Position numbers and translations under genes: made by a program. 64,000 nucleotides of DNA from Candidatus Saccharimonadia bacterium (GTDB lineage Bacteria > Patescibacteriota > Saccharimonadia > Saccharimonadales > JALRHH01): positions 492,020-556,019 of the forward strand of contig JALRHH010000001.1 of the NCBI GenBank assembly GCA_023253175.1, in the 5' to 3' direction. The notes under the pieces were generated by a model. That model saw only the letters and a program-made list of their open reading frames with translations, was not told the DNA's origin and did not search any database. This document shows, piece after piece, positions 27,001 to 64,000 of the stretch. How positions within the stretch are numbered: position 1 is the first letter of the stretch; the number at the start of each line of letters is the position of its first letter.

Positions 27001-30000
27001 TGGCCACCGTAAGTATTAGATGTAGGGGTGTTGTCACTGATAGAACCACCCCCCAGCGAGTTATCGGCAAGATAGTTCGCAGTACTTACAGCGGTCAAGA
27101 CAATGGCGCTGTTTGTCCCTGTTGCAGATGTGTCGGTAATAAGGTTCGAGCTGATAGTATTGCCACCAGAACCTATCAGTAAAATAGCCTGATTCAAGCT
27201 TACGCCGCCGCTATCGTGCACGCTGTTGCCTGAAATAAGGTTACTGGTAGCGGTATTTAGTGATATACCTGCACTAGTGCTTCCTTGGACAACGTTACCT
27301 GTAATATTATTGTTAGCAGGTACAGAGTCAGTATAGATATAAATACCTGTTGCGCCGCCACTAATATTATTGCCACTTACAGTATTTCTGCCACTGATAG
27401 TCGGATCAACTCCTGTCATATATATACCGTAAGATACGTTATTTTGCAGTAGGTTGTCCGTAAGGATGTTGTCTGAACTACCAGACAAAGATATACCCAT
27501 AGATCCATTACCCTGCGCAATGCTATTAGTAACAGTGTTGCCATTCGCTGTAGCGAATAGGAATCCAGCGTTACGCCAGTTATTTGAGGCAACATTTGTT
27601 GCCTTTGTGCCCGTAGATGCGTTTAAGTAGACACCGTACATAGTACCGCTCGTTTGGTTACTCAGATTACCATCAAGCTGCATATCGCGAACCGTGACAT
27701 TATTGCCAAGACTAAGTGCATTAATATTCGTATTGAAACTATTTGGAATCGTAATGATAGTTCCCTGTCCAACACCTGAGATTACGGTGTTGTTTGGTAC
27801 GGATACAGCTGCGTCAATAGTGTATGTACCAGCAAGCAATACAACCTTCTTACCAGATGCCGCAGTTAATGCCTGGTTGATCTCTACCTGATCTCCGTCT
27901 GCCGCCGCACCCGTGTTGCCATTAGCAACATAGTCAGCCGCGTCTTTGTCAGATTGTGATGAGTTACTTGCAGCAACGAGGATCGCGTCAGATCGATCTG
28001 CCTGCCACTTGCCATTGCTGTATACAAGAAGCTTCTTGGTGGTTGTGTCGAAGTAGATCATACCTTCTGAACCTGCTGGACGAGAACCAGTATTACCACC
28101 GGTGATGGTTAAGGTCATAGAAGAAGCAATAGTTACCTCGCCATTAAACACAGAACCTACTCCACTACTGCCAAAGGTAATGCCTGCTGCATTATCGCCT
28201 ATTTTTAATCCAATGCCAGATGTCAAAACATCGATCTCATCAGTATAGAGTACTCCGCCCGCACTGAAGTCACCGTTCACGCGACCGCTGCCATTGATCC
28301 AGAAGCTAGCAGCCTGAGCAGAGGCATTTTGATTCTGAATATAGTTACCAGATCCGCTGCCTGCTGCAAATACAGCACAAGTGATGGTGTCACCAAGCTG
28401 GGTAATTGCCTGGCCGGCAGGACACGCAGCTGGGTAGTTATTCAGCGCCTGCCAATCAACTGTGCCCGCATTACTGATCGTCAGCGTGTCAGATACATAT
28501 GCATCAGTCAGAACAGAGCCATTCCATGTGCCACTCGTTACAACACCCGTATTACTGATGACGAATTGGTTGGCGTTGCCTACGGTGAGGGAACCATTTG
28601 TATCAAGATTACTACTTACGTTGAGTGTTCCCGTGACGTTGGTGTTCTTCATGAGTTCGATAGTGCCACTACCAGCAGGCTGGATCATGAAGTTACCGGA
28701 GGCATTTGTTTGGCCACCGTAGGTTGTGTTAGTGCCGAGGTCGTTAATGCCGAGACCACCTAGATTGTTATCAGCTATGTAAGCACCGTCAGTTGTAGCA
28801 TTGATGTTTATTGCGTAGCCAGATGTACCAGCGCCGTCAACAATCGTGTTACCGATGATCCGTACGCTATCAGCATCTACAAGGTTTATCGCATCAAGTG
28901 ATGCATTTGAAGTTATGATTGTGTTGCCAGATACTGTCATTGGCACACCGAGGGTGGTCGGGCTGGTTATGTATAGTTCGCTCGTCGTATTATCAGCGAA
29001 CTGGACGATAGCACTACTATTCAGTGTAACCCTGCCGTTAATATAGTTACCATCGAATCCAATGATACCTGAATTGTTTGAAAGAGAAACGTCACCGTTA
29101 ACAATGTTGTTATTAAAGCTATCTATTTGAGAGCCATTGAGCGACATAGAGCCCGCAGTAGTGTTACTGAACTTAGAAACTATTGCACCATTAATAAGGA
29201 CTACTGCGCCTGAAGTCGTACTGCTTACTATAGAGTTAAGCTGTATACCATCTAGATACACCGTACTACCAGTCCAACCACTAATTCCAATATTAGAAAG
29301 ATCGTTATTAGGGTTAGCACTGCTACTTACAAGGTGTATGGCATGCTGAACACCAGTTGTGAATACCCCGCTCAGTGTCATGTTGCGCAAAGAGACACCC
29401 TGGGCTGATGACGTATTACTGTTCTCAATAAGGTTATCAACAGTAGCACCGACGCTTAATCTAATAACTGTACTATTTTTACCAGCACCCTCGAGAGTTG
29501 TGTCATTCGGGACCAAAATTGTACCGGCAGTAGTATATGTACCTTCTGTTAGGTACACCTTTCCGCCCGTTGCTGCGGTTAGTGCTGCATTGATAACCGC
29601 TTCATCAGTACTTCCGTTCGCAACATAATCTGCAGCATCTTTTACAGACTGCGGCGCATTACTTGCAGCTACGATCTTAGTCGCAGTAGAGCGATCAGCT
29701 TGCCATTTACCATTTGCATATACCAATAGCTGCTTGGTTGTTGTGTCAAAGTACAGCATACCCTCAGTTGGCGATGCTGGGCGAGATGCCGTGTTACCGC
29801 CAGTGATCGTGAGACTCTGGCTTGCAGCAAGGACGACAGAACCGTTAAACGTCTTGTTGCCTGCAAATGTTTGGTTACCTGTAGATACAAGGCCAGGGTT
29901 AGATGCATCAGCAGTCTGAAGATATAGATTGACCCCAGAGATAACTGCACCGTTTGCAGACTTAGTTTGTGAATCAATTGCACCAATAGTTGTCACGCCA

Positions 30001-33000
30001 CCGTCACCACCTGTTGCAAATGCCTGACAGGTAATCGTGTCACCTAGCTGCGTGATTGCCGAGCCGGCAGGACAGGCAGCTGGGTAGTTGCTGAGCGCTG
30101 TCCAGTCTACCGTACCAGCACTGCTAATCGTAACGTTGTCCTGGATGTATGCATCAGAAATTGCAGTACCGTTCCAAGTACCAACCGTAACCGTGCCAAC
30201 CCCTGTAATGCCAGTGTAGCTACCACTTATACGTGCAGAGGCAACCGTTCCAGAAGTCAACTGACTTGCGTTGAGGCTCGTAAGACTTGCCCCACTACCG
30301 CTAAAGTCGGTTGCAGTAACGGTGCCACTGAATGTTCCGGCACCGGTAACGTTCAGATCGCCACTACTGAGCGTGAGGTTACCAGCTGTGAGTACAAAGT
30401 TATTACCGGTATCGAGTGTTAGCGTACCGGCAGATTGTAGTAGCGTGCTTGATGTGAGCGTCTTAGTACCATTGAACATTGCAATTCTGTTGTTAGTACC
30501 GCTGCCGCTAATGTCACCAACGCCGCCGACACCCGCACAGTTACCAGCAGTCGTACAAACATCATTACCACCTTGCTGTAAGCTAGCGGTAAAGTTGGCG
30601 TTGGCGTTGAGCCGGGCAACGGTTGCATCAACAGCAACATCATTAGCGTTCACTGTAATACCGCTGCCTGCACCGATGTTAAGCGTGTTTGTACCGCCAA
30701 GTGCTGTTGTGCCACCACCCGTCAGGCCATTGCCTGCGCTTATCGTGATACTGTCATTAACGAGCTTAGTGTTAGTAATACTTGCATCTGCAATTCGTGC
30801 AATATTGAGTGTGCCAGTTGCATTACCAAGATCAAGGTAGTATGCGCCATTCTGTCCCTGTAACAGAGCAGCATCAACGTTAGTCAAGTTTGATCCATCT
30901 AGAACGGGCAATGCGCCAGTGTTATTCAGCTGGACCAGCTGGTCAGAGCCATTAAATACGTTACCCTGTAGCGTGACGTCAGCGCCCAATGCCAGAGTAA
31001 TTGTATTAGATCCGTTGTCGTTAACAGTAATTTGGCCAGTTGTACCCTGTAGAGTTAGTGCACCCGAGAGACTGTTCAGCGATGCAACACCACTTCCACC
31101 ACCGCCAGTAGCGGCGTTTAGCTGAGCCAGGGTAACAAACTCGTCATTTTGGGTTGCGTCAGCACCACTGACAGTACCAGTAAACGTACCCGCGCCAGTA
31201 ACATTTATGTCGCCGCCAGCAAGCACAAAATCGACACCATTATCGAGTGTCAATGTGCCGGCGGATTGCAATAGATATGAATTAACAATATTCTTAGCAC
31301 CGTTAAAGAGTGCAATTCTATTAGCCGTACCACTGCCGCTAATATCGCCTGTGCCGCCAACACCAGCACAGTTACCAGTCGTTCGACAAACAGTGTTATC
31401 AACCGCAATGTCGTCTGCATTGACCGTGATACCATCACCCTGACCAATATTGAGTGTTGCGCTACCACCAAGCGCAATGCTACCACCGTTAATCAAACCA
31501 CCGCCAGCAGTCACTGTTAGTGAACTGTTCTGCAGCTTTGCATTAGTCAATGAGCCGTCTGCAATACGTGCCACGCTAAGCGTGCCGCTGGAAATATTAC
31601 TTGCGTTCAAGCTAGTAAGACCACTGCCGTTACCACTAAAGCTTGTTGCGGTTATAGATCCAGATGCATTTACATTACCAATTAGCTCCACGCCGTTAAA
31701 CGCATCCAATATGATCTGGCCAGTGCTATTGTGGATCTCTATGTCTGCACCGATTGATGTTTCGCTAATTATCTCTGTTTGAATATTAGGTGATAGGAGG
31801 CTGACACCGACAGATGCACTACCATTAATTATTCCATCTCCATTAATCCAGAAATTTGCTGCCTGTGCACTCGCATTCTGGTTTTGGATATAGTTACCAG
31901 AACCGCTACCCGCGGCAAAAGTTGTACAAGTAATAGTGTCGCCAAGCTGAGTAATAGCCTGGCCGGCAGGACACGCAGCTGGGTAGTTGTTAAGCGCAGT
32001 CCAATCAACGGTACCGCTACTACTTATCGTAATATTATCTTGAATGTAAGCATCAGCAATAGCATTTCCGTTCCAGGTACCAGTAGTGACTGTGCCAAGT
32101 CCTGTGATGCCAGTGTAACTACCCGATAGGCGGCCACTAGGAACAGTTCCGCTCGCAAGGTTTGAAGCGTTAAGATTTGTAAGGTTAGATCCGTCGAGAA
32201 CTGGTAATTCACCACTTGCCCCAAGCCTTACAAGCTGGTTTACTCCGTTGAAGGTATTACCTTGTAGCGTAACCGCACTATTAAGACTTAGTGTCAGTGT
32301 GTCTGTACCGTTACTTGAAATTGTAATCTGGCCAGCTGTTCCCTGGAGACTCAGGTCACCCGCCAAGGTGTTAAGTGAATCAACGCCGCCGCCTACACCA
32401 CCGATTGCAGCGTTAAGCTGTGAAAGTGTTACGAATTCATCATTTTGGGTTGCGTCGGCACCACTTACCGTACCACTGAAGTTGCCGCCGCCCGTTACAT
32501 CGACGTTGCCATTGCTTAATACCAGATTGCCGCTGGTGAGCACAAAATTGTTTCCACTATCTAAAGTAAGAGCGCCTGCTGATTGCAATAATGTACTCGA
32601 TGTCAGCGTCTTGGCACCGTTAAATAGTGCGATACGTCCGTTACCGCCCGTGCCACTAATATCACCATTGCCGCCAACACCAGCACAGTTACCAGTCGTT
32701 CGACAAACAGTGTTATCAACCGCAATGTCGTCTGCATTGACCGTGATACCATCACCCTGACCAATATTGAGTGTTAGCGAACTTCCAAGTGAAACGGAAC
32801 CACCGTTTATAAGCCCTGCCCCTGAAGTAACCGTAAGACTGCTGTTCTGAAGTTTTACGTTTGTAATGTTACCGTCGGCAACTTTAGCCGTTGTAACATT
32901 TCCATCCGCGATCTTACTGGTAGTAATCGCATTATTTGCAATAGTCACTACCCCTAGTCCAGAGATTGTTGCATCACCACTGACTGAAGTATTTTCCCAT

Positions 33001-34736
33001 CGTGTATTTGCACTGTTATAGATGAGGATCTGACCGTTACTGGATCCCGTAATGTTTAGATTCGCACCCTGTAAGCGAGCAATCGTTGGGTTCGGATATG
33101 ACCCCGTTAAGTCGCCGCCTGCAGTGCCAGCTGCAGCACAGTTGCCAGTACTCACACAAACTGTTCCCGTCAATGCCGGGAATGTGATTGTGCTTGAACC
33201 AGAAGGAGCTGCAAAAGCTAGTGTTGTAATGTTTGCACCACTGCCTGCCGAAATACTACTGTTAGAAGCACCTTGTAGCGTGAATTGCTGCGATGGAGCG
33301 CCAACCGTTAGTGCCGCAGATGGAGTAATCGTGTTGAGTGCGGTCGTGCTTGTGATATCACCGTTTGCACCACTCGCTGCAGCGCCAAGATTACCACGCG
33401 CGCCACCGGCTGTATTTGATCCTGTACCACCATTCGCGATTGGCAACGTACCTGCTACATCAGTAGTAAGATCAATTGCAGTCACAACTCCCAGTGTTCC
33501 ACCAGTTGATCGAACAAACCCATTGCCAAGTCCACTTATAGTCAAAGAACCACCAACAGTGGTATTGCCATTATTGCTAATCGTGAACCTATCGACGCCA
33601 CCTGACTGCATGTGAATCAAGTTACCGCCGCCCGTATCGTTAATAAATATAGAGCTGTCTGCCGTGCCATCAACCTGTGCAGTTCCAGGAGAAAGAATAA
33701 CTGCAGTTCCGCTACCTGTTGCACAGGTAGCACCAGTAGTACATATAGTCTGCACTGCCCCACCAGTTGCTGGCAGAGAGAACACACGGCCACCGGCCAC
33801 AAATGTAATAGAATCGTTACCTGCGTTAATACTGACGCTATTGCCGGCAGCAGTTTGTACTAATGTGTTCGCCCTAATCTGCCCACTCGGAGAAAGTGAT
33901 AGGCTGCCAAATTGTACATTTGCATTTGCATCTAGGTCCTGAGGAGTCGTGATCGTAACAACACCATTGGTTGTTGCTACATTAATCCTATTAACTGAAC
34001 CCTGGAGGCTGACCGAACCAGTCTGGCCGTTCAGCTCGGTAACACCTGCAGGTGGAATCGTTACCTGACCAAGGGACTGTACGAGTGCATTCAGGTCATT
34101 AACCTGAGATTGGAGTGAGTCTGACTGTCCCTGTAGGGCATCAGCTGTGTCCTGGCTCGCGTAGCCACAATTATTAGTATCAAGACAAATTGTCCCGCTT
34201 GTACCTGGTAATGTAACCGTCTGGTTCGCCGTAGGATTCTGTACGCGTATCACCGTCATAAAACCACCATCCGATATCTTGAGACTGCCCCTTGTAATAA
34301 TATCCCCACTTACGAGCAATGACTGCTGGGCACCCTGGAGTTCATTAGGAATCTTAGAGTCGTTTGAGTCTTCGATCTTAACGTCTTGCTGAACCGCAGT
34401 CTGTGAACTCTTGTCATCACTAGGGCCCTTGCGAACCAAGAATGCCATCGCACCGATCGTGATCATCAGTACAAGCGCAGTAATGAGCGTAGATACAATC
34501 ATAGCCTTGCGGCGAGAGAAGAAAGTACTAAACCTCAGATGCTTTTTCGGCTGAGGATGCCCAGACTGAACGGGCTGTTGCTCGGTGTGAACTTCTAGCG
34601 CATTCTCAAGAGATTCAAGCCGATAATCGGATACACCACTCGCATAGCTCTGAACCGTCTGCGAATCATCAACAGTTCGACCACCCTGTGAGGGCAGGTT
34701 ATAGTCATTCGACTCGTTAGGGTTTTGTGGGTTCAT
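24012..34736 (-). CDS. Giant fibre-like surface protein (3574 aa) with three tandem beta-helix (tailspike/depolymerase-like) modules
   Basis: ATG at 34736 and a TM helix (MIVSTLITALVLMITIGAMAFLV). The N-terminal half has three ~440-aa fibre repeats, each ending NYPAACPAG.AITQLGDTITC...GNYIQNQNASAQAANFWINGDG. Three beta-helix modules follow. The C-terminal domain (MNYYKWTTTQGTNQDYDIVVQVPVPSDF...IYLDYKSKF) is homologous to that of the 2768-aa protein. Confidence 0.9.
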   Translation of the reverse strand: MNPQNPNESNDYNLPSQGGRTVDDSQTVQSYASGVSDYRLESLENALEVHTEQQPVQSGHPQPKKHLRFSTFFSRRKAMIVSTLITALVLMITIGAMAFLVRKGPSDDKSSQTAVQQDVKIEDSNDSKIPNELQGAQQSLLVSGDIITRGSLKISDGGFMTVIRVQNPTANQTVTLPGTSGTICLDTNNCGYASQDTADALQGQSDSLQSQVNDLNALVQSLGQVTIPPAGVTELNGQTGSVSLQGSVNRINVATTNGVVTITTPQDLDANANVQFGSLSLSPSGQIRANTLVQTAAGNSVSINAGNDSITFVAGGRVFSLPATGGAVQTICTTGATCATGSGTAVILSPGTAQVDGTADSSIFINDTGGGNLIHMQSGGVDRFTISNNGNTTVGGSLTISGLGNGFVRSTGGTLGVVTAIDLTTDVAGTLPIANGGTGSNTAGGARGNLGAAASGANGDITSTTALNTITPSAALTVGAPSQQFTLQGASNSSISAGSGANITTLAFAAPSGSSTITFPALTGTVCVSTGNCAAAGTAGGDLTGSYPNPTIARLQGANLNITGSSNGQILIYNSANTRWENTSVSGDATISGLGVVTIANNAITTSKIADGNVTTAKVADGNITNVKLQNSSLTVTSGAGLINGGSVSLGSSLTLNIGQGDGITVNADDIAVDNTVCRTTGNCAGVGGNGDISGTGGNGRIALFNGAKTLTSSTLLQSAGALTLDSGNNFVLTSGNLVLSNGNVDVTGGGNFSGTVSGADATQNDEFVTLSQLNAAIGGVGGGVDSLNTLAGDLSLQGTAGQITISSNGTDTLTLSLNSAVTLQGNTFNGVNQLVRLGASGELPVLDGSNLTNLNASNLASGTVPSGRLSGSYTGITGLGTVTTGTWNGNAIADAYIQDNITISSSGTVDWTALNNYPAACPAGQAITQLGDTITCTTFAAGSGSGNYIQNQNASAQAANFWINGDGIINGSASVGVSLLSPNIQTEIISETSIGADIEIHNSTGQIILDAFNGVELIGNVNASGSITATSFSGNGSGLTSLNASNISSGTLSVARIADGSLTNAKLQNSSLTVTAGGGLINGGSIALGGSATLNIGQGDGITVNADDIAVDNTVCRTTGNCAGVGGTGDISGSGTANRIALFNGAKNIVNSYLLQSAGTLTLDNGVDFVLAGGDINVTGAGTFTGTVSGADATQNDEFVTLAQLNAATGGGGSGVASLNSLSGALTLQGTTGQITVNDNGSNTITLALGADVTLQGNVFNGSDQLVQLNNTGALPVLDGSNLTNVDAALLQGQNGAYYLDLGNATGTLNIARIADASITNTKLVNDSITISAGNGLTGGGTTALGGTNTLNIGAGSGITVNANDVAVDATVARLNANANFTASLQQGGNDVCTTAGNCAGVGGVGDISGSGTNNRIAMFNGTKTLTSSTLLQSAGTLTLDTGNNFVLTAGNLTLSSGDLNVTGAGTFSGTVTATDFSGSGASLTSLNASQLTSGTVASARISGSYTGITGVGTVTVGTWNGTAISDAYIQDNVTISSAGTVDWTALSNYPAACPAGSAITQLGDTITCQAFATGGDGGVTTIGAIDSQTKSANGAVISGVNLYLQTADASNPGLVSTGNQTFAGNKTFNGSVVLAASQSLTITGGNTASRPASPTEGMLYFDTTTKQLLVYANGKWQADRSTATKIVAASNAPQSVKDAADYVANGSTDEAVINAALTAATGGKVYLTEGTYTTAGTILVPNDTTLEGAGKNSTVIRLSVGATVDNLIENSNTSSAQGVSLRNMTLSGVFTTGVQHAIHLVSSSANPNNDLSNIGISGWTGSTVYLDGIQLNSIVSSTTSGAVVLINGAIVSKFSNTTAGSMSLNGSQIDSFNNNIVNGDVSLSNNSGIIGFDGNYINGRVTLNSSAIVQFADNTTSELYITSPTTLGVPMTVSGNTIITSNASLDAINLVDADSVRIIGNTIVDGAGTSGYAININATTDGAYIADNNLGGLGINDLGTNTTYGGQTNASGNFMIQPAGSGTIELMKNTNVTGTLNVSSNLDTNGSLTVGNANQFVISNTGVVTSGTWNGSVLTDAYVSDTLTISNAGTVDWQALNNYPAACPAGQAITQLGDTITCAVFAAGSGSGNYIQNQNASAQAASFWINGSGRVNGDFSAGGVLYTDEIDVLTSGIGLKIGDNAAGITFGSSGVGSVFNGEVTIASSMTLTITGGNTGSRPAGSEGMIYFDTTTKKLLVYSNGKWQADRSDAILVAASNSSQSDKDAADYVANGNTGAAADGDQVEINQALTAASGKKVVLLAGTYTIDAAVSVPNNTVISGVGQGTIITIPNSFNTNINALSLGNNVTVRDMQLDGNLSNQTSGTMYGVYLNASTGTKATNVASNNWRNAGFLFATANGNTVTNSIAQGNGSMGISLSGSSDNILTDNLLQNNVSYGIYMTGVDPTISGRNTVSGNNISGGATGIYIYTDSVPANNNITGNVVQGSTSAGISLNTATSNLISGNSVHDSGGVSLNQAILLIGSGGNTISSNLITDTSATGTNSAIVLTAVSTANYLADNSLGGGSISDNTPTSNTYGGQANASGNFMIQPAGSGTIELMKNTNVTGTLNITSDVDTNGSLTVGNANQFVISNTGVVTSGTWNGTALIDAYVSDTLTISSAGTVDWQALSNYPAACPAGQAVTQLGDSITCAAFAAGSGSGNYIQNQNASQQTTANFWISGTGRADTSFTTPLLDTATAVALNIGTTNATQINLNKNVVVAASQSLTITGGNTASRPVSPTEGMLYFDTTTKQLLVYANGKWQADRTEAVIVAASDSSQTDKDAADYVANGNTGAAADGDQVEINQALTAASGKKVVLLAGTYTIDASISVPNNTTLTGVGSNTLITIQNTFNTSIDAITNTTTGGNGTGIVIQNLRLDGNTTNQSSGTMRGIYLNGVGSGNTGTAVQGAKLTDLWVNNWRTSNMSLNSTANSYVSDISMKNAVSGSVVSLMIDGTSINNTFTDNEILGGTHGIYIVTSTSSNNTFTSNIVDSTNNKGIYVSSGYNNFTGNTVRNVNGDGFFLETATASNNNITGNTIQSNNEGIHTTGNASQNLISGNNIVSNSVYGIEINGGSANIVSSNKFHSNGGNTTNNAIYIPNSSSNSIVGNSINDTSATTNNYAINLGVSSSSNYIAGNTLGGGSINDASSTNIYGGQVNSSTNYVVQPAGTIELMKNTNVTGTLNITSDVDTNGSLTVGNANQFVISNTGVVTSGTWQAGTIGLLYGGTNNTSYTTNGIVYSNGTSLVSTGAGTTGQCLIATTGGAPSWTSCTATTLQGAYDASSPATILLADNKNLQFTAADTATDPSIIMKLNCTACGTGATGNFLVQNNGGTALFSIAGNGDIQLGTATNGISLSSAVNGGAFTLSGNAQNTKRINLIAEYPSVVLDPDLTNNTGTMTSGYDSASRMNYYKWTTTQGTNQDYDIVVQVPVPSDFASWANSNLVTVSAYTTDATNGTISITAIDTAGTTICNNISVTPTAGYNAGLWRAPSTACALSSGTYTPGAYMTFRIKLQSPNGGDTRVGNIYLDYKSKF
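25076..26452 (-). repeat. Beta-helix module 3 of the 3574-aa protein
   Basis: QSLTITGGNTASRPVSPTEGMLYFDTTTKQLLVYANGKWQADRT ... GKKVVLLAGTYTIDASISVPNNTTLTGVG ... PbH1-like turns (NTFTSNIVDSTNKGIYVSSGYNNFTGNTVRNVNGDGFFLE...) ... TNYVVQPAGTIELMKNTNVTG. Confidence 0.6.
26926..28118 (-). repeat. Beta-helix module 2 of the 3574-aa protein
   Basis: MTLTITGGNTGSRPAGSEGMIYFDTTTKKLLVYSNGKWQADRS ... GKKVVLLAGTYTIDAAVSVPNNTVISGVG ... NNVSYGIYMTGVDPTISGRNTVSGNNISGGATGIYIY ... GNFMIQPAGSGTIELMKNTNVTG. Confidence 0.6.
28631..29822 (-). repeat. Beta-helix module 1 of the 3574-aa protein
   Basis: QSLTITGGNTASRPASPTEGMLYFDTTTKQLLVYANGKWQADRS ... TGGKVYLTEGTYTTAGTILVPNDTTLEGAG ... GNFMIQPAGSGTIELMKNTNVTG. Confidence 0.6.
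31352..31458. repeat. Intragenic direct repeat, copy A (107 bp, 100% identical to 32669..32775)
   Basis: Base-by-base comparison at a 1317-bp offset. Encodes NIGQGDGITVNADDIAVDNTVCRTTGNCAGVGG in both copies. Confidence 0.95.
32669..32775. repeat. Intragenic direct repeat, copy B (107 bp, identical to 31352..31458)
   Basis: See copy A. Confidence 0.95.
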
Positions 34737-35044: not shown

Positions 35045-35878
35045 CTAATACCAAAGAATACCGTAAACTGCCGCAAGACCGACAGCGAGTACGCCAATTG
35101 CTACAAGAATGATACGGAACATTTCCCGGCGAATCATTTTTCGGGCCAATGGGTTCCTCCCCAGTGCCGTAACTGCACTTGTAACGGCGCCATAGATAAT
35201 GCCTCCCTCAGCGATCAAAACGAGTATAAAAATTATCAAAGCGGCCAGAACCCGTATATCACTCACCTGCTTACCGGTCACAGATTCGCCAATTTTTGAC
35301 AAAGGAGAAGGTTCAATAGTCCTTCCGGCATTCGCCCCTTGCTTATTAAGGTTTATCTTGAGCTTAACTATTCTTGTAGATTTGCTGGCACTATCTTCTA
35401 TATAGGTATATCGGATCGCATCCTTTTCCTCTACATCCGCGCTATCTTGTGCGGCAACTCCTACAATGGTGCCGCTTGCGGTTTCACTGCCCTTCATGAG
35501 CACGCCCTTAAATGCAGATAGCATAAGGAGATCACCCTTCTTCACAGCTCCCGCAACATCACTAACATAGGCAGTAACATCGCCTTCACTCTCTACAAGG
35601 ACCTTAGAGCTCTCGGAAGCCACCGTAACTGATGAGTCATCTACAGTAGTCACTACACCGACGATGCGCTTACCACTTGTTTGATCAGCCCGCTCGACCT
35701 CAGAATCACCTGATTCACTTAATGCAGCGACCATTCCGACAGTCAGACTGGTATCACTCGTAGCGTAACCCCGGGCTATAGCATAAATATAACTAACTGA
35801 GCCAAAGAAAAAAACGCCCACGACTGACAATGCGAGCACAGCTGCAATATATCTGTTTTTCTTTACTACAGTAAGCAT
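35045..35878 (-). CDS. Hypothetical membrane protein (~277 aa): N-terminal anchor, soluble middle, C-terminal two-helix hairpin
   Basis: The ORF track starts at 35914; I prefer ATG 35878 (MLTVVKKNRYIAAVLALSVVGVFFFG). The C-terminus is LAALIIFILVLIAEGGIIYGAVTSAVTALGRNPLARKMIRREMFRIILVAIGVLAVGLAAVYGILWY. Confidence 0.55.
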   Translation of the reverse strand: MLTVVKKNRYIAAVLALSVVGVFFFGSVSYIYAIARGYATSDTSLTVGMVAALSESGDSEVERADQTSGKRIVGVVTTVDDSSVTVASESSKVLVESEGDVTAYVSDVAGAVKKGDLLMLSAFKGVLMKGSETASGTIVGVAAQDSADVEEKDAIRYTYIEDSASKSTRIVKLKINLNKQGANAGRTIEPSPLSKIGESVTGKQVSDIRVLAALIIFILVLIAEGGIIYGAVTSAVTALGRNPLARKMIRREMFRIILVAIGVLAVGLAAVYGILWY

Positions 35879-36061
35879 TAACGTTACCTTGCTAGCTAGT
35901 ATACAAGTAAGCACGAAAAGTAGCGAGCACTACATAGGCATAAATCTAAAAACCGGTAGCCATGAGAACCTGCCCAAAAGCAAGACTACATATACTGGCC
36001 AGCAAAGCCATGTAACGCGCAAGGCCTTATCCAAAATAATTATCGCAATCCAAATGTAGGC

Positions 36062-40590: not shown

Positions 40591-40753
40591 TTTTCCTTTC
40601 AAAATAGCCTATCAGCCCTTCAAGACCTACCCTATCAAAGCCTTGAAAATGCTCCTGAATATCCCCTAATGTTTCAATGTCAGCCTCTGAGTCACTAGGC
40701 TGATCAAGCATACCTATCAATTCTCTTAGATCTAATGGCGGGAGACTGAGCAT
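40577..40753 (-). CDS. 58-codon acidic upstream ORF overlapping the ileS start
   Basis: ATG 40753 is preceded by AGGAAAGGA plus 4 nt. It encodes MLSLPPLDLRELIGMLDQPSDSEADIETLGDIQEHFQGFDRVGLEGLIGYFERKNDEV. Its last codons (...AGG AAA AAT GAT GAA GTA TAA) contain the ileS SD and ATG, a 14-nt overlap. The ORF-track GTG start (40795) lies inside the T-box helix and is rejected. Confidence 0.4.
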   Translation of the reverse strand: MLSLPPLDLRELIGMLDQPSDSEADIETLGDIQEHFQGFDRVGLEGLIGYFERKNDEV

Positions 40754-40981
40754 ATCATCCTTTCCTGTGAAAATAAAAAATCCCTTTTTAGTCACTGGAA
40801 TCCGCGTACTGCGGACGGTACCATCCAGTTTCTAAAAAGAGATTCTTTTTAGCACTTACTTGCCAGTTCTTACGCGCTGGTTTGCGGTGAGTTCTACTGA
40901 GCGTTCGCTGTTCTTCTCACTCCTCGTGGGTGATAACCACTTCTTGAATATACTCGCAATCTGATATTCAAACGGATTCTG
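40754..40981 (-). promoter_or_regulatory. T-box riboswitch leader (tRNA-Ile sensing), probably the translational (SD-sequestering) type
   Basis: Minus-sense 40828..40795 is CUGGA-UGGUACC-GUCCGC-AGUAC-GCGGAU-UCCAG. This gives helix A1 (5 bp), the canonical 7-nt bulge UGGUACC, helix A2 (6 bp) and a 5-nt loop. UUCCAGUGA (40800..40792) can alternatively pair with UCACAGGAA (40770..40762), which overlaps the SD. Upstream there is a hairpin GUGG-UUAUCAC-CCAC with AUC-A in the loop (40940..40926), an S-turn-like AGUAGAA, a CCAG...CUGG pseudoknot-like element, and the hairpin AAAAAGA-AUC-UCUUUUU. Confidence 0.75.
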
Positions 40982-40987
40982 GTAACT

Positions 40988-41016
40988 ATTGTAGACCAAT
41001 TTGCAACGTTATGCAA
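40988..41016 (-). promoter_or_regulatory. Candidate promoter of the T-box/ileS transcript (TTGCAT-N17-TACAAT)
   Basis: Minus-sense TTGCAT (41016..41011), a 17-nt spacer, then TACAAT (40993..40988). This predicts a ~228-nt leader, typical for T-boxes. Confidence 0.5.
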
Positions 41017-41280
41017 CTAGCCTCTCGCAAACGCTGCTACCTCTTGTATGAGTGGTAATTTATCATTTGCCCAGTACTGTACAAGCTGGCCATCATCACG
41101 GAGCACGAGAATAGCTGGATGAGGCATAACATCATATAGGCGCATCATATCCATGGCCCGAGGAGTGTCCACATCAATAAGTTCGAACGTTATATTCTCT
41201 TGGTGTTCCATGTCGCGCACAAACGTTTCTACTGATCGTGCCTGCTCTGACTCCGGCCTATAAATGACTACTGATCTCAT
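41017..41280 (-). CDS. Small hypothetical protein (87 aa), possibly thioredoxin-fold-like but without Cys
   Basis: ATG at 41280. MRSVVIYRPESEQARSVETFVRDMEHQENITFELIDVDTPRAMDMMRLYDVMPHPAILVLRDDGQLVQYW. The beta-alpha-beta pattern resembles glutaredoxin/NrdH-like proteins, but there is no CxxC. Confidence 0.45.
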   Translation of the reverse strand: MRSVVIYRPESEQARSVETFVRDMEHQENITFELIDVDTPRAMDMMRLYDVMPHPAILVLRDDGQLVQYWANDKLPLIQEVAAFARG

Positions 41281-41325
41281 ACTACAAGTCTAACATAAGC
41301 GTTTATGGCACTTAACCTTTTATCA

Positions 41326-41353
41326 ACTAAAAAGCGGGGAGTAACTCCCCGCT
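41326..41353 (-). terminator. Rho-independent terminator after nrdJ
   Basis: Minus-sense AGCGGGGAG-TTA-CTCCCCGCT followed by TTTTAGTTG. Perfect 9-bp GC-rich stem (41333..41341 / 41345..41353). Confidence 0.75.
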
Positions 41354-41375
41354 TTTATTTCCCGAGTGGACAATC

Positions 41376-53941: not shown

Positions 53942-55264
53942 TTAGTATTTTACCACCAGATAGGCGATAGTACCCAGTACGATCAAACAAATCGCAGCCC
54001 AAAAGCCGCGCGCTGCCGCCCTTCTATAGAATTCACGCGCTGCCTCGTCAGATACAAACGGCAAATCTTTGGCATTGTCAGATCCTGCCACCTTTGATGA
54101 AGCCGCCATGCCTGCTGCAGTGCTTGCGGCAACTACAGACCCAACTGACGCAGCACCAGCAGCCGCCACAGGGTGAGACTTATCATCTTTTACTTCGTGG
54201 CTTCGTTCAAAGGCACGCTCAACAGGCACGTCATGCTCTGCAGCCTCAGCCACCTGCTCTGCGATGTTATTAGGCCGTACCACTTCAGAAGATTGTGCAA
54301 CTTTATCGCTTGTCTCCTGCGGAGATGTCCGCTCTGGAGCCCCTCTGACTTCTTGCCTTGGCGACTCCTTTCTTTCAGAAGGAGTAGTGCGAGATTCTAA
54401 AGCAGGAATTCGACCCCTGTCTGAGACTTGAGATTCCATAGTAGAACGTGCCTTTTTCAGCTGCTCAATCTGCTGCTTGTTTTCAGAAACTACCTTTTCT
54501 AGCTCTTTCTGCAAGGCACTACCGTGATCCTGCTCCTTCTTAAACGCATCAATCTTTTTATTGGTTCGCGCTTCGAGTTTTTTGTCTGCACGTTTACGGC
54601 CTACGTACTCGGCACCCACAAGGGCAATTGGTAGCAGATTACTGCCCCGCCGCTCAATTACAGTTTCTGTAGGAACTTTTTTTTCAGTTGGCAGAGAGTC
54701 CACGGTTGGCTGACGGTCCTGCTGGCCAAAATCAATCGTGACCTCCCCATTATCAAGCGGTAAAGAGGGCGCATCAGGTACCGTCTCTTCGGCAATGGGC
54801 GCAGCATCCATAATACGCTCTGACGTATGGTGAGCAGGGTTAGTATCGCTAGCTGCAGGCTGGGTCGGTGCCGCTACCAGAGAAGGTGTAGGCCGAGTAG
54901 AGACGTTCACATTCTCGTCATCATCATCTTGCTGCTCGCCAACACCCTGCTGGCCCTGTTCAATTCTGGATGCAAAGCGAGTAATATTTGCCCACACATC
55001 GTGATTAAATTCGTGCTGCTGCTCGGGCATATCAGTGCTTAGATGGGCTGGCTTTTCTACAATACCAGGGAACAAACGCGCAAATAATCGCTGCATACGC
55101 TTCGGTTTTTCAGCCTCTTGCCCTTCTCCGGCAGTATGTGATGAGGCTTCTCTACCCCGTAGGCTCGATAAGTAGTTCGAAAGCTTACTACCACGCTTTT
55201 TCTTCGTGTTAGTCGATTCTGTATTTTCGTCCTGTTCTTCTGGACCGAGTGGACGGTTTTCCAT
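53942..55264 (-). CDS. Hypothetical low-complexity/coiled-coil protein with a C-terminal TM anchor (440 aa)
   Basis: ATG at 55264. Charged, Glu/Gln/Pro-rich, with a coiled-coil segment (KKIDAFKKEQDHGSALQKELEKVVSENKQQIEQLKKA). C-terminal helix GFWAAICLIVLGTIAYLVV. Confidence 0.55.
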   Translation of the reverse strand: MENRPLGPEEQDENTESTNTKKKRGSKLSNYLSSLRGREASSHTAGEGQEAEKPKRMQRLFARLFPGIVEKPAHLSTDMPEQQHEFNHDVWANITRFASRIEQGQQGVGEQQDDDDENVNVSTRPTPSLVAAPTQPAASDTNPAHHTSERIMDAAPIAEETVPDAPSLPLDNGEVTIDFGQQDRQPTVDSLPTEKKVPTETVIERRGSNLLPIALVGAEYVGRKRADKKLEARTNKKIDAFKKEQDHGSALQKELEKVVSENKQQIEQLKKARSTMESQVSDRGRIPALESRTTPSERKESPRQEVRGAPERTSPQETSDKVAQSSEVVRPNNIAEQVAEAAEHDVPVERAFERSHEVKDDKSHPVAAAGAASVGSVVAASTAAGMAASSKVAGSDNAKDLPFVSDEAAREFYRRAAARGFWAAICLIVLGTIAYLVVKY

Positions 55265-60034: not shown

Positions 60035-60529
60035 TTAGCGAGTTGAGGTGTTATTAGTGGTTGTACCAGATGGCTGAGCCTCTGAAAGATTCAATGCCGA
60101 TACCTCGACTAACTTCTTAGTTGATGGCCGATACAGGACTGCCTTGCTTGATTTTGCGTACAGTAACACCTTGTCACCATTCTGGGCCTTGGCAAAGAAT
60201 GGCTTGTCCTGAACCTTACTTGCATCTGTGACGGTCGCAATGGTTGGAACCTCATCTGATGGTAGATCAATAAGCTTGCCAACTTCTGACGCAAGCTGCT
60301 TAGCTTCGTCCTCAGGAGAAGCCTGCTGCTCCTGCGACTGAGAAAGCTTATCTACTTCTTTTGTAAGCTTTGATCGGTCATACACCATATATCCGCAGAC
60401 AACCACAAGCGCGACTACGACGAACCCTATAAACAGATTTTTACTTGGCTTCTTCGATGTTCGTGGCTTTACCTCGGCAGCCGCATCCTTATCGTTATCT
60501 TCCCTGCTATCGACTGATATATTTCCCAT
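60035..60529 (-). CDS. Hypothetical single-pass membrane protein (164 aa)
   Basis: ATG at 60529 and a TM helix (LFIGFVVVALVVVCGYMVY). It lies 53 nt downstream of the tail-fibre-like gene on the same strand. Confidence 0.55.
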   Translation of the reverse strand: MGNISVDSREDNDKDAAAEVKPRTSKKPSKNLFIGFVVVALVVVCGYMVYDRSKLTKEVDKLSQSQEQQASPEDEAKQLASEVGKLIDLPSDEVPTIATVTDASKVQDKPFFAKAQNGDKVLLYAKSSKAVLYRPSTKKLVEVSALNLSEAQPSGTTTNNTSTR

Positions 60530-60582
60530 TGCTTCCCCTTTACGCTTATTGTACCGACTGAAGGTCCAGCAAACAAGACCGG

Positions 60583-63500
60583 CTAGTTAGAGGCAGTACG
60601 TACGTCATGTACGCTTGTTGCCGTCCATGAGAACTTAAGTTCCTGCGTTGCCGGATTCTCGAGCACGATATCAAATCCGTTAGCCGTCACATTATCGTAA
60701 CTGTAACTCGCGAACTTACCGCCGCCCAGACTAATTGTAATTACAGGAGGCTGTGCGTACGGTTTCGTAAACTCTACATGGACCACTTGATTACCACTAC
60801 TGATGACCGCATAACCAGCAGTATCATTATTAAAGGTTGCTGTGCCGCCAAATGAGACATTGCCGCCAAAGGTGACGAGCTGATCGAACAGCGCATTTCC
60901 AGCAAAGTGAGCATTACCCATGACTGTCAGGCCGCTATTTGCCAAGAGGTTGAGATCTACGGTCAGAGCGCCCACAGTAAGATTGCTTAAATCAATGTTG
61001 GTTCCACCGCCAAGGCCCTCAAGCGCAGCGACACGGCCCTCCAGGCTCTCAATGCGCTGCGCATAATCGAGACCCTCGATATTAGCTACACGAATGGTAT
61101 CAGCCTCGATAACTCCGTCAACAACCATGCTATTAAAGTGAGTATTTCGGTCAGAGCTAATCATCTTAGCGAGCTCAGTGACGGCACGCATGTTATAAAT
61201 CGATAGCTGATCATACTTTACTCGGTAGAAACCATCTTCTTGATAGACAAGCTCTGGGAAAATCTGTGCCAGCTCCTGAGCAATCACACCTGACTGATGC
61301 TCTGGATCACAGTACATATTGAAGTCATTGAAGTAGCTATTGGTACAGTCAAAGTCAAAACTCACAGCTCTTACATCACGTAGTCCATCAAGCACAGAGT
61401 TACTAATTTCCGTAATGTTGGTCTTGAGGCGCTCATCAGATAAACCAATACCGGCACAGGCTGCATTACCAGTGATAATACCACCGCTTACAACCATGTT
61501 CGGAAGATAGTTATTGCCTGTACAGGTCACTGTAACGCCAGATACACCGTTACGCTGGTACACACCAGCAGTCGTGTTGAAATTACCACTTGCAGTAACA
61601 CTTGTAGAATTAATGACACCAGCATTTGATATTCCACCGTTGTTATTGTTAATTCCTCCGCTGATTGATGCACCACCGCTTGCAACGGTTAGACCAGTCA
61701 ATCCAGTCAGTGTGCCAGTGATAGTTGAGTTCCCGGTAACAGTGATGCCACCCGTGGTGACCGCTAAGTTACCACCAAAGCTTGCACCGGCCTCAACAGC
61801 TAAACTGGCCGTACCAGTGATATTACTGTTCGTGATTGTGAGCGTTCGGTTACTGAGACTCGCAAGGTCAATAGTCCAGTTGTTAGCGTTTTGGATATTG
61901 CCGTTCTCAAGAATACGGAACCTCTCACTGCCAGCAGTATTAAATATGATATCGTCCGCGCCGATAGTTGCAGTTGTGCCGACGGTCATAGCACCAGCAT
62001 TCTGGACAAGTGGAGTTGTTACACTGGTAGAGAATGTCACAGCGTTATTTGTACTAATGGCGCCACAAGTACCGCCAGACCCAAGGGTGATGGTGTTACC
62101 ACCTCCCGTCAAGTTGCCGCTACCACTTGCACACGTAATTTGTACATTACCCTGGACTGCGGTGTTAGCGATTGAACCGTATAGAACGGCCAGAGTTGGG
62201 GTTGAGCCTTCACCGGTATTACCTGATGTTGAAAGACCAGTCAGCGTACCAAAGTTTGCGACATAATCACCTGTTGTCTGGGCTCCGAGTGTAACTGCAT
62301 TATTTTCAATCTCACTATTTGAGATTGAAGTTCCAAGTGTCGCTTGGAGCGCGTTTCCGCTAATCGTTATGCCCGTTCCAGTAATATCGGTAACCGTATC
62401 ACCATTAATACCAAGAGATGTAATATTCTGTAGTGCGCCACCATTTGTAAGGCGGGTGGTGCCGCCCGTCTGTAATGCACCGTCGGCAAGGTTAAGATCA
62501 GCTGCTGTTACCGCACTACTGTTTGCGAGCGTCAATGTCGTGCCGCCAAGCAGGTCATATAGATCAATTGTCGTAGCTCCTGCAGCAGAACGACGAATTG
62601 TTGGGTCAGCCAAGTTAAGTACGTCCCCTGCACTGTCCAAAGTAATATTGCCGGTGCCGCCAGAAGTAATAGTTAAGCCACTCGCAGAACCGATAGCCGC
62701 ACTTCCACTGAGTGATATACCACTAATATTCTGGAGTGCACCACTACTAGTGAGGCGAGTCGTGCCACCAGTACTAATATTGTTTAGCGATGCATTGCCG
62801 TTTGCACTAATCATATTAGCGAGTTCAGCTACACCACGCATCGTGTAGAATTGGAGTTCCTGGAAATTAACCTCGTAATAACCCTGGCCGTTCTGGGTCA
62901 CTACACCCGGAAACAGGCTTGCGATCTCTTGGGATATGATACCGGTGTGATTGGCACAGTCAAGACGAAGGCTACTGAGCAGCCCGTTCAGACAATCAAA
63001 AGTATAATTAACGACTCGAACATTCGCGAGGCTGTCGAGGACCGATCCCACATTCGTCACGCTAGTCTTAAGACGTGAGTCAGATAGACCAGTACTGTCA
63101 GCAGCACAAGCCCACGCCGTACCGTTCCACTTGAGTATCTGACCATTAGTACAGCCGCCCAGCAACTTAAGGCCCGATGCATCTGTCTCCAGACCAGAGT
63201 TTGCAGAGGTAGTAGCCGTCGTACCAGTTGTTGCAACATCCAGCGACAGTGCGGCAGTTGCATTCTCTACCCCAACACCGCTCACAACCAAGCCATTACC
63301 GGTCGTAACTGTTGCAACATAATTACCGGTGGTGTCGGTCGCAAGTGCTACCGAGTTAGCCTGTATCGCTGTGACACCTGTGGCGGAGACCGTAACATCA
63401 CCAGATAAGCTCGTGAAAGTCGGTACGCCGGAACCATTAGCGAGCAGTATCTGACCACCCGTGCCGGCAGTTGTTACCTGAAGTGCTCCCGTGCCATTAC

Positions 63501-64000
63501 CGAATAGGACCCCGTTTGTGGCAAATGTAGCTGCGCCCGTTCCACCACGGTTCACACCAAGCGTTCCGCTCGTAAGAATAGCTACATCAGCCGTTACATT
63601 CTGCAGTGCACCGGCATTCGTAAGACGAACCGTACCTGCCGTCTGCAGGTCACCCTCAACTATATTAAGACTCGTAACCCCTGCACCACTGTTAGTAATA
63701 GCGAGGACCCTACCACTTGCCGAAGACAAATCAATCGTCTGGTTCGTAGTAGTCAGTAGTGTTGAGGCATTGAGGTTAACAATTCCTGATCCAGAAGTTA
63801 GGGTCAGATCATTCACGCCAGTCGTCGAGACCGTCATCGCTCCGGCATTCGTTAAGAGCGGCGTACGAACAGCAGTCGTAAACGATACATCGCTACCCGT
63901 TGAGATGGCGTTACATGTGCCGCCACTACCAAGCGTGATTGCATTACCGCCGCCGGAGAGGTTACCGGTACCAGATGCACAAGTGATTTGGGTGTTACCC
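60583..64000 (-). CDS. Tail-fibre-like giant protein, C-terminal >=1138 codons (5' end lies right of the window), with two peptidase-S74 chaperone domains
   Basis: The ORF-track Met (63837) is internal. The same frame stays open to 63999 (GNTQITCASGTGNLSGGGNAITLGSGGTCNAISTGSDVSFTTAVRTPLLTNAGAMTVSTT...). Fibre motifs are present (GVNRGGTGAATFATNGVLFGNGTGAL, GQILKWNGTAWACA). TAG stop at 60583. Confidence 0.85.
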   Translation of the reverse strand, partial: GNTQITCASGTGNLSGGGNAITLGSGGTCNAISTGSDVSFTTAVRTPLLTNAGAMTVSTTGVNDLTLTSGSGIVNLNASTLLTTTNQTIDLSSASGRVLAITNSGAGVTSLNIVEGDLQTAGTVRLTNAGALQNVTADVAILTSGTLGVNRGGTGAATFATNGVLFGNGTGALQVTTAGTGGQILLANGSGVPTFTSLSGDVTVSATGVTAIQANSVALATDTTGNYVATVTTGNGLVVSGVGVENATAALSLDVATTGTTATTSANSGLETDASGLKLLGGCTNGQILKWNGTAWACAADSTGLSDSRLKTSVTNVGSVLDSLANVRVVNYTFDCLNGLLSSLRLDCANHTGIISQEIASLFPGVVTQNGQGYYEVNFQELQFYTMRGVAELANMISANGNASLNNISTGGTTRLTSSGALQNISGISLSGSAAIGSASGLTITSGGTGNITLDSAGDVLNLADPTIRRSAAGATTIDLYDLLGGTTLTLANSSAVTAADLNLADGALQTGGTTRLTNGGALQNITSLGINGDTVTDITGTGITISGNALQATLGTSISNSEIENNAVTLGAQTTGDYVANFGTLTGLSTSGNTGEGSTPTLAVLYGSIANTAVQGNVQITCASGSGNLTGGGNTITLGSGGTCGAISTNNAVTFSTSVTTPLVQNAGAMTVGTTATIGADDIIFNTAGSERFRILENGNIQNANNWTIDLASLSNRTLTITNSNITGTASLAVEAGASFGGNLAVTTGGITVTGNSTITGTLTGLTGLTVASGGASISGGINNNNGGISNAGVINSTSVTASGNFNTTAGVYQRNGVSGVTVTCTGNNYLPNMVVSGGIITGNAACAGIGLSDERLKTNITEISNSVLDGLRDVRAVSFDFDCTNSYFNDFNMYCDPEHQSGVIAQELAQIFPELVYQEDGFYRVKYDQLSIYNMRAVTELAKMISSDRNTHFNSMVVDGVIEADTIRVANIEGLDYAQRIESLEGRVAALEGLGGGTNIDLSNLTVGALTVDLNLLANSGLTVMGNAHFAGNALFDQLVTFGGNVSFGGTATFNNDTAGYAVISSGNQVVHVEFTKPYAQPPVITISLGGGKFASYSYDNVTANGFDIVLENPATQELKFSWTATSVHDVRTASN
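61159..61446 (-). other. Peptidase S74 / intramolecular chaperone auto-processing domain, copy 2
   Basis: GLSDERLKTNITEISNSVLDGLRDVRAVSFDFDC...QSGVIAQELAQIFPELVYQEDGFYRVKYDQLSIYNMRAVTELAKMI. It is followed by ~190 further residues (coiled coil IESLEGRVAALEGL plus a beta-rich end domain). Confidence 0.7.
62809..63087 (-). other. Peptidase S74 / intramolecular chaperone auto-processing domain, copy 1 (internal)
   Basis: GLSDSRLKTSVTNVGSVLDSLANVRVVNYTFDC...HTGIISQEIASLFPGVVTQNGQGYYEVNFQELQFYTMRGVAELANMI. The S-D-x-R-L-K motif has the Ser...Lys(+5) dyad spacing of endosialidase/tailspike C-terminal chaperones. Confidence 0.7.

Follow-up and report, generated by a model that had tools for sequence, protein, structure and literature searches.

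The window analysed here is a stretch of 64,000 nucleotides (nt) from Candidatus Saccharimonadia bacterium (contig JALRHH010000001.1 of GenBank assembly GCA_023253175.1, positions 492,020 to 556,019 of the forward strand). At its right edge lies a gene for a fibre protein with two Peptidase_S74 domains, i.e., intramolecular chaperone and autocleavage domains. Positions 60583..64000 (minus strand) hold the C-terminal 1,138 codons and the stop codon of this gene, which encodes 3,448 amino acids (aa) according to its open frame and an identical public contig. The product is read as a giant, probably trimeric cell-surface fibre of a Saccharibacteria/Patescibacteria bacterium. From the N-terminus to the C-terminus it consists of tandem MerR/HTH_17 domains of the helix-turn-helix (HTH) type, a transmembrane helix, a collagen-like stretch, about 2,300 aa of repetitive fibre, the first S74 domain (S74-1), a second fibre segment, the second S74 domain (S74-2), a spacer and a lectin domain.

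The minus-strand frame closes at the stop codon 60583-60585, and its translation meets no stop through base 63999. An open reading frame (ORF) lister had called 60583-63837 (1,084 aa), and the initial annotation of the window, which was made from the letters and the ORF list, took 63837 as the start. This start has to be given up. The in-frame translation of 63838-63999 is stop-free and reads GNTQITCASGTGNLSGGGNAITLGSGGTC..., thus the ATG at 63837 encodes an internal Met and the gene, three times longer than assumed, runs past the window edge. The exact identity of the neighbouring 164-aa protein (60035-60529) led us to a contig that we call L001 (ENA ERZ27267699 k141_834652, 644 kb) and to two more assemblies. 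Over 60035-64000, L001 and the window agree with 100% identity. The gene call on it is 3,448 aa long, and the C-terminal 3,314 aa are readable from L001. The remainder of the gene extends about 6.9 kb past the right window edge, with the called start near virtual coordinate 70,930. A homologous-protein search did not return the exact 3,448-aa product among its matches, which were all shorter than 2,000 aa.

Both S74 domains proposed by the initial annotation were recovered. On the visible ORF the Pfam model PF13884 matches two stretches (74.7 bits, E 7e-21); with a cutoff of 22, it reaches 50.1 bits on the S74-2 fragment. S74-1 spans 62761..63117 (minus strand; PF13884, a family profile and an AlphaFold2 (AF2) model), and S74-2 spans 61111..61464 (minus strand; PF13884 and a profile-to-PDB alignment). 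The family profile gives at least 150 bits to each of the two copies. NCBIfam contained no match, and phmmer of the whole visible protein against the PDB found only a chance-level match to the T4 short fibre. The motifs GLSDSRLK and GLSDERLK begin at 63090 and 61446, within 3 nt of the positions first reported for them (63087 and 61443). The two copies, which had been said to align over about 95 aa, do so over about 110 aa with 44% identity.

A profile of 25 S74 domains of the family matches the solved S74 chains 8jov, MyRF 7dc3, S16 gp37 6f45 and GA-1 3gud. In these alignments the SDxRLK of the family falls on the catalytic dyad of 8jov, 6f45 and 3gud and on the D-x-x-x-K aligned in 7dc3, so that the Ser/Lys dyad is kept in both copies, as the initial annotation had supposed. 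The catalytic residues of S74-1 are Ser2616 (63082-63084) and Lys2621 (63067-63069), those of S74-2 are Ser3164 (61438-61440) and Lys3169 (61423-61425), all on the minus strand. 3gud, the chaperone chain released from GA-1, has exactly the aligned Ser as its first residue. The catalytic pairs of endoNF (S911/K916) and MyRF (S587/K592) have the same spacing of five residues. Ser, Asp and Lys are unchanged in all 36 S74 domains of the first match set and in 100 out of 100 copies from 84 close relatives, defined as proteins whose best S74 domain scores at least 100 bits.

For MyRF it has been reported that S587 and K592 are indispensable for cleavage, that the double mutation of Y615 and Y617 abolishes cleavage at the normal site, and that I637 and Q639 sit near the cleavage site (PMC8326128). 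In alignment with Y615/Y617, both copies of the present protein have an aromatic pair Y/F-x-F ahead of a conserved Cys (VNYTFDC and VSFDFDC). In alignment with I637/Q639, they have a GxIAQE-type strand (TGIISQE and SGVIAQE). The AF2 model of S74-1, made from a 51-sequence alignment, has a mean confidence (pLDDT) of 86.8. Its best match in the PDB is the MyRF ICA structure 7dc3 (E 8e-5, TM-score 0.53-0.55), followed by 3gud and 3gw6 (endoNF). Three Cys residues are conserved in at least 90% of the S74 domains of the family, one shortly before the catalytic Ser and two within the domain. At the latter two positions the aligned solved S74 chains lack Cys. The family domains may form extracellular disulfides.

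Neither copy is at the extreme C-terminus: 723 residues follow S74-1 and 175 follow S74-2 (the initial annotation had estimated about 190 for the latter). Upstream of S74-1, positions 63829..63999 (minus strand) are the end of a direct-repeat block R (GNTQITCASG...NAGAMTV), which begins about 280 nt past the window, at about 64280 in L001 terms, and is about 75% identical at the aa level to a second copy at 61963-62427 (minus strand). Between block R and the domain, the translation of 63154..63828 (minus strand) is fibre segment A, rich in Gly/Thr/Ser/Asn repeats. Pfam and PHROG scans gave no match in this segment, which lies outside the S74 regions. The CTNGQILKWNGTAWAC motif (63106..63153, minus strand; regex map) stands immediately ahead of S74-1. 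The pattern C-x2-G-Q/N-I-L-K-W/Y-N-x3-W-x-C occurs four times, the three extra copies being at residues 259, 523 and 792 of the L001 partial protein, and an S74 domain follows only the last copy.

Fibre segment 2, delimited by translation and alignment, comprises the 432 aa between S74-1 and S74-2 (61465..62760, minus strand) and contains the second copy of R. The alignment of residues 1-430 of the visible protein to residues 617-977 has 35% identity and an E of 5e-60; therefore the second module of fibre plus S74 is real, and the initial observation that it repeats upstream blocks holds. The GNxQITCASG block occurs four times in the fibre protein, with two further variants. The ortholog P0143 lacks residues 2086-2741 of the partial protein, which is exactly the 656-aa cassette that holds S74-1. 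The cassette is flanked by the direct repeats of about 150 aa, which have about 75% identity in protein and about 64% in DNA. This pattern suggests, at the level of sequence, that recombination gains and loses units of fibre plus S74 between close relatives. Some orthologs have the cassette and others lack it. The distal fibre is therefore modular, its cassettes coming and going much as phages exchange their fibre tips.

The long ORF could also be read in another way, namely as an assembly or frameshift artefact that fused two adjacent fibre genes, each with a terminal S74 domain. Fibre genes are repetitive and prone to misassembly, and the absence of the first cassette from P0143 would fit. 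However, the fibre ORF is identical in three assemblies (ENA ERZ27267699, ENA ERZ27267698 and a separate Logan assembly of run SRR14560442), the order S74-fibre-S74 also occurs in diverged relatives at 50-60% identity, and the chain continues in frame past S74 with a conserved 'GNA-LN-ISTGG' motif. We therefore consider an artefact to be next to inconceivable.

The two-copy layout is kept in the relatives P0001, P0002, P0005, P0006 and P0012. S74-1 has 73-74% identity to the first copies of P0001 and P0002 and only 44% to any second copy; judged by these identities, S74-1 and S74-2 are two old subtypes. A recent internal duplication was ruled out, as the S74 copies are 44% identical and belong to separate old subtypes.

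The spacer after S74-2 (60820..61110, minus strand) is modelled by AF2, at low confidence, as a short helix (LDYAQRIESLEGRVAALEGL, a possible coiled coil) followed by short, regularly spaced beta strands. It is conserved among relatives. The protein ends in an H-type lectin domain of about 70 aa (60616..60819, minus strand; PF09458, AF2 and Foldseek), a likeness that the initial annotation had noticed by eye. With a cutoff of 24, PF09458 reaches 25.1 bits on the C-terminal fragment of 294 aa; on the 1,084-aa ORF it stays slightly under the cutoff, at 23.1 bits. The same model is matched by 12 of 14 relatives, with a best E of 2e-7. The AF2 model of the 294-aa piece has an overall pLDDT of 52, and its last 70 or so residues are confident (pLDDT 84-90). 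Foldseek relates this part to Helix pomatia agglutinin (2ce6/2ccv), Helix aspersa agglutinin (4q56), SLL-2 (3wmp) and discoidin II (2vme), with E from 5e-4 to 7e-3 and target TM-scores of 0.5-0.54. The identity to known H-type lectins is 14-24%, too low for reliably mapping, without a trimer model, the GalNAc/Gal-binding residues that known members have at the protomer interface. A homolog search with the C-terminal 294 aa alone found three matches. An equivalent lectin end is present in seven relatives without any S74 domain.

At the other end of the protein there is a single hydrophobic helix at residues 49-67 of the partial protein, i.e., about 183-201 of the full one. Ten collagen-like G-X-Y triplets follow it, and then the long fibre rich in Gly/Thr/Ser/Asn repeats. 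The precomputed Pfam annotation of the full 3,448-aa product includes MerR and HTH_17, and neither was matched within the 3,314 aa that we scanned; the HTH domains are therefore placed within the first 134 residues. In P0143 (3,015 aa; 83% identity over 2,085 aa) two MerR/HTH_17 domains at residues 42-77 and 91-138 precede the equivalent transmembrane helix. The HTH pair of P0143 (residues 42-138) corresponds to L004:1815-2105 on the contig L004, which carries this ortholog, and in the present gene it falls at L001:1-400 and upstream. The same start of HTH and transmembrane helix is found on the giant Patescibacteria fibres P0024, P0043, P0045, P0067 and P0096; other members of the family begin with a plain signal-anchor. 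The fibre protein is N-in, C-out and N-terminally membrane-anchored, with the HTH domains on the cytoplasmic side and both S74 domains and the lectin outside the cell.

The initial annotation presented internal and repeated S74 domains as exceptional, and a survey of representative proteins contradicts this. The S74 profile was run against 1.84 billion representative proteins and gave 82,386 matches at E <= 1e-3; 257 retrieved proteins were re-scored with the profile. At least two near-full S74 domains are present in 82 of these 257 proteins, and about 80 multi-copy proteins are among the best 150 S74 matches, numbers that are not frequencies because domain scores add up and a score-ranked list favours multi-copy proteins. 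P0123 and P0127 have three domains; P0130 (5,473 aa) has four by the re-scoring criterion and five HMMER stretches. None of the 84 close relatives has S74 at its C-terminus: at least 99 residues (median 296) come after the last copy, and 14 of these proteins have two or three copies. Two copies are also common among the more distant proteins of the score-biased list. There, 8 of 146 copies have lost the motif (e.g., ADERLK), which shows that the Ser is free to change where it has no use. In a tblastn search of P0176, a distant protein with two S74 domains, against cultured phages, both domains matched one single phage S74.

Our literature search for S74, intramolecular chaperones or tail fibers in Saccharibacteria, Patescibacteria or the candidate phyla radiation found nothing relevant. 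Likewise, a search for multi-copy or tandem Peptidase_S74 proteins found no description of them, only of single C-terminal copies or of MyRF. To our knowledge, all characterised phage S74 domains are at the extreme C-terminus, and MyRF is the only known case of an internal position. Going by the surveyed sequences, the internal arrangement of two S74 domains is not singular. What is new is the way in which the parts are combined in an episymbiont lineage: HTH domains at the N-terminus, a membrane anchor, a giant fibre, S74 domains that are internal as well as repeated, and a lectin at the end. Each domain as such was already known.

The S74 regions match phage tail-fibre PHROGs and a few phage fibres, and thus one may ask whether this is an ordinary phage or prophage tail-fibre gene within a bacterial contig. 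The phage similarity is restricted to the S74 domains: PHROG matches are confined to these regions, where they align with the C-terminal ends of phage-fibre profiles, and a search of 50,697 phage records gave only four weak matches, limited to S74, at 27-32% identity. The fibre protein carries a membrane anchor of its own. On its left side the gene has a ROK kinase, ribosomal protein S1, IF-2, DUF5663, Fmt, Def, PriA, YqeY, adenylate kinase, Map, FtsA, FtsZ, NrdR, class II ribonucleotide reductase (RNR), IleRS and L21. No capsid, portal, terminase or baseplate genes were seen within the 64 kb. Contig L004 has the 3' end of a 23S rRNA gene and a 5S rRNA gene (L004:1-531) upstream of the fibre gene, which follows about 1.1 kb downstream with no called gene between. 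The named relatives are annotated as Candidatus Saccharimonadales, Saccharibacteria, Moraniibacteriota or Patescibacteria. The cellular, non-prophage context that was initially assumed is thereby borne out, and a prophage origin of the gene appears highly improbable.

The window contains four further giant ORFs on the minus strand: 3721-9906 (2,061 aa), 10358-18664 (2,768 aa), 19237-24003 (1,588 aa) and 24012-34736 (3,574 aa). All four have a single transmembrane helix at the N-terminus; two of them consist of Kelch repeats, and NosD/beta-helix repeats are present in one. ORF 24012-34736 has short repeat blocks in common with the S74 fibre. ORF 10358-18664 has no S74 domain and begins with the 'TLNFQARLM' N-domain that is also found on S74-bearing fibres such as P0003-P0006 and P0030. 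The 164-aa protein at 60035-60529 (minus strand) has one transmembrane helix and lies 53 nt downstream of the fibre gene; its position is conserved on the contig of the ortholog (L004:10793-11284). No family was matched convincingly (DUF515 reached 19 bits, under the cutoff), and the protein may be a partner of the fibre. A 440-aa protein between IF-2 and DUF5663 (53942-55264, minus strand) has a C-terminal transmembrane helix and no family match. The sub-threshold match of a 289-aa protein with several transmembrane helices (35045-35914, minus strand) to the phage minor capsid family PF23982 (18.8 bits) is probably due to chance. The class II RNR is of the B12 type. Scans of the whole 64 kb with Rfam (gathering score) and for tRNA genes returned nothing, including in the 774-nt gap between IleRS and RNR (40603-41375).

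By analogy with the characterised S74 domains of endosialidase, GA-1, T5 pb1 and MyRF, we lean, on balance, towards a trimeric fibre, anchored at its N-terminus, in which the S74 domains set the folding register and then cleave. If both sites are active, three products would arise, as the initial annotation had proposed. After export, each S74 domain would trimerise and set the folding register of the fibre on its N-terminal side. The Ser/Lys dyad would then cleave the chain just ahead of Ser2616 and Ser3164. The first product would be the membrane-anchored mature fibre (residues 1-2615, 2,615 aa), the second would join S74-1 to fibre segment 2 (residues 2616-3163, 548 aa), and the third would contain S74-2, the spacer and the lectin (residues 3164-3448, 285 aa). 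As the anchor is N-terminal, cleavage would shed the distal parts, including the lectin. The shed pieces could possibly be mere assembly aids, or they could possibly form a soluble lectin, trimeric or hexameric, that works in trans.

Several points weigh against this scheme. Cleavage in the family is deduced from the strictly conserved catalytic residues in the sequences, and the S74-2 region has low confidence in the monomer AF2 model. Trimer formation is argued by analogy, from the precedent of collagen-like stretches, S74 domains and H-type lectins, and the content of the first 134 residues from the precomputed Pfam annotation and the ortholog P0143. Moreover, a cut at S74-1 would free everything distal and a cut at S74-2 would free the lectin; an adhesive tip, if this is what the lectin is, would seem to be wasted in this way. 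The lectin ends of relatives without S74 suggest that this domain has a function of its own.

There is an alternative that we rate as possible, though clearly the less probable of the two: the S74 domains may mainly be permanent or regulated nodes of trimerisation and registration, with cleavage that is slow, regulated or absent, or with a cut at S74-2 only, so that the fibre would remain a single chain with the lectin as its host-binding tip. With the anchor at the N-terminus, the lectin comes to lie at the far tip. Some relatives have the lectin end but no S74, and the presence of further residues after the last S74 domain in all 84 close relatives fits as well. In MyRF, S74 cleavage depends on the trimer context and can be modulated (PMC8326128). 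Against permanent nodes stand the Ser and Lys retained in every close copy with no known structural reason for it, the loss of Ser in degenerate copies elsewhere, and the fact that every characterised S74 domain cleaves.

A far bolder extension, which we regard as a long shot, is a bacterial contact-sensing polyprotein, in which the lectin-tipped fibre would be coupled through the transmembrane helix to the cytoplasmic HTH. Self-cleavage of S74 outside the cell would shed trimeric pieces, one a fibre segment and the other a unit of S74 and lectin, and the HTH would receive a signal of this shedding or of the binding of a host. The S74-lectin unit could serve as a bivalent agglutinin. Such a protein would be a counterpart of MyRF in prokaryotes, with inverted topology, by which an episymbiont finds or marks its host. 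The analogy behind the bivalent agglutinin is that released endoNF chaperones form hexamers.

The published work that we found on host recognition by Saccharibacteria and other Patescibacteria centres on type IV pili. The present gene belongs to a large, so far undescribed Patescibacteria family of N-anchored giant fibres made of phage-fibre parts, whose distal cassettes (S74 with a lectin or other end domains) appear to be swappable, like the modular and rapidly exchangeable receptor-binding apparatus of phages. The textbook picture of S74 (one copy, at the extreme C-terminus, in a phage or in MyRF) is too narrow, as metagenomic proteins frequently have S74 domains that are internal and repeated and whose dyads are intact. 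If there is cleavage, the fibres are surface polyproteins that process themselves; if there is none, S74 has been reused as a permanent trimerisation node.

The closest known systems are the C-terminal chaperones of phages (K1F/endoNF 3gw6, GA-1 3gud, T5 pb1 4uw8, S16 gp37 6f45; MEROPS S74), which have the domain in common with the present fibre by hidden Markov model (HMM), profile-to-PDB alignment and predicted fold. In both cases there is an SDxxxK dyad, and S74 lies C-terminal to a repetitive fibre attached at its N-terminus. Unlike the phage chaperones, the present S74 belongs to a cellular genome and to a protein that carries a membrane anchor of its own, is present twice and is never C-terminal, being followed by more fibre or by the lectin. 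Also unlike the aligned phage domains, the S74 of the present family has three conserved Cys.

MyRF, whose ICA 7dc3 is the best structural match of S74-1 (TM-score about 0.53), resembles the present fibre in having an internal S74 in a membrane protein with a DNA-binding-type domain, the downstream part remaining joined to S74 once the chain is cut. MyRF has its DNA-binding domain and S74 on one side of the membrane, so that cleavage frees a transcription factor. In the present protein, by contrast, the transmembrane helix lies between the HTH and both S74 domains, and therefore S74 cleavage cannot release the HTH.

The H-type lectins (2ce6/2ccv, 3wmp, 2vme) match the C-terminal beta-sandwich of about 70 aa by HMM, barely above the cutoff, and by fold. 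Known H-type lectins are trimeric, which fits a trimeric fibre. The present domain differs from them in its low identity (14-24%) and in its unusual place after a self-cleaving domain. Finally, multi-S74 'tail fiber domain-containing proteins' from metagenomes, such as MHB8261017.1 (488 aa, two S74 domains) from a Bacteroidia metagenome-assembled genome, have more than one S74 with an intact dyad per polypeptide, as here. They are much shorter, their last S74 is often at the extreme C-terminus, and outside S74 they are unrelated to the present fibre.

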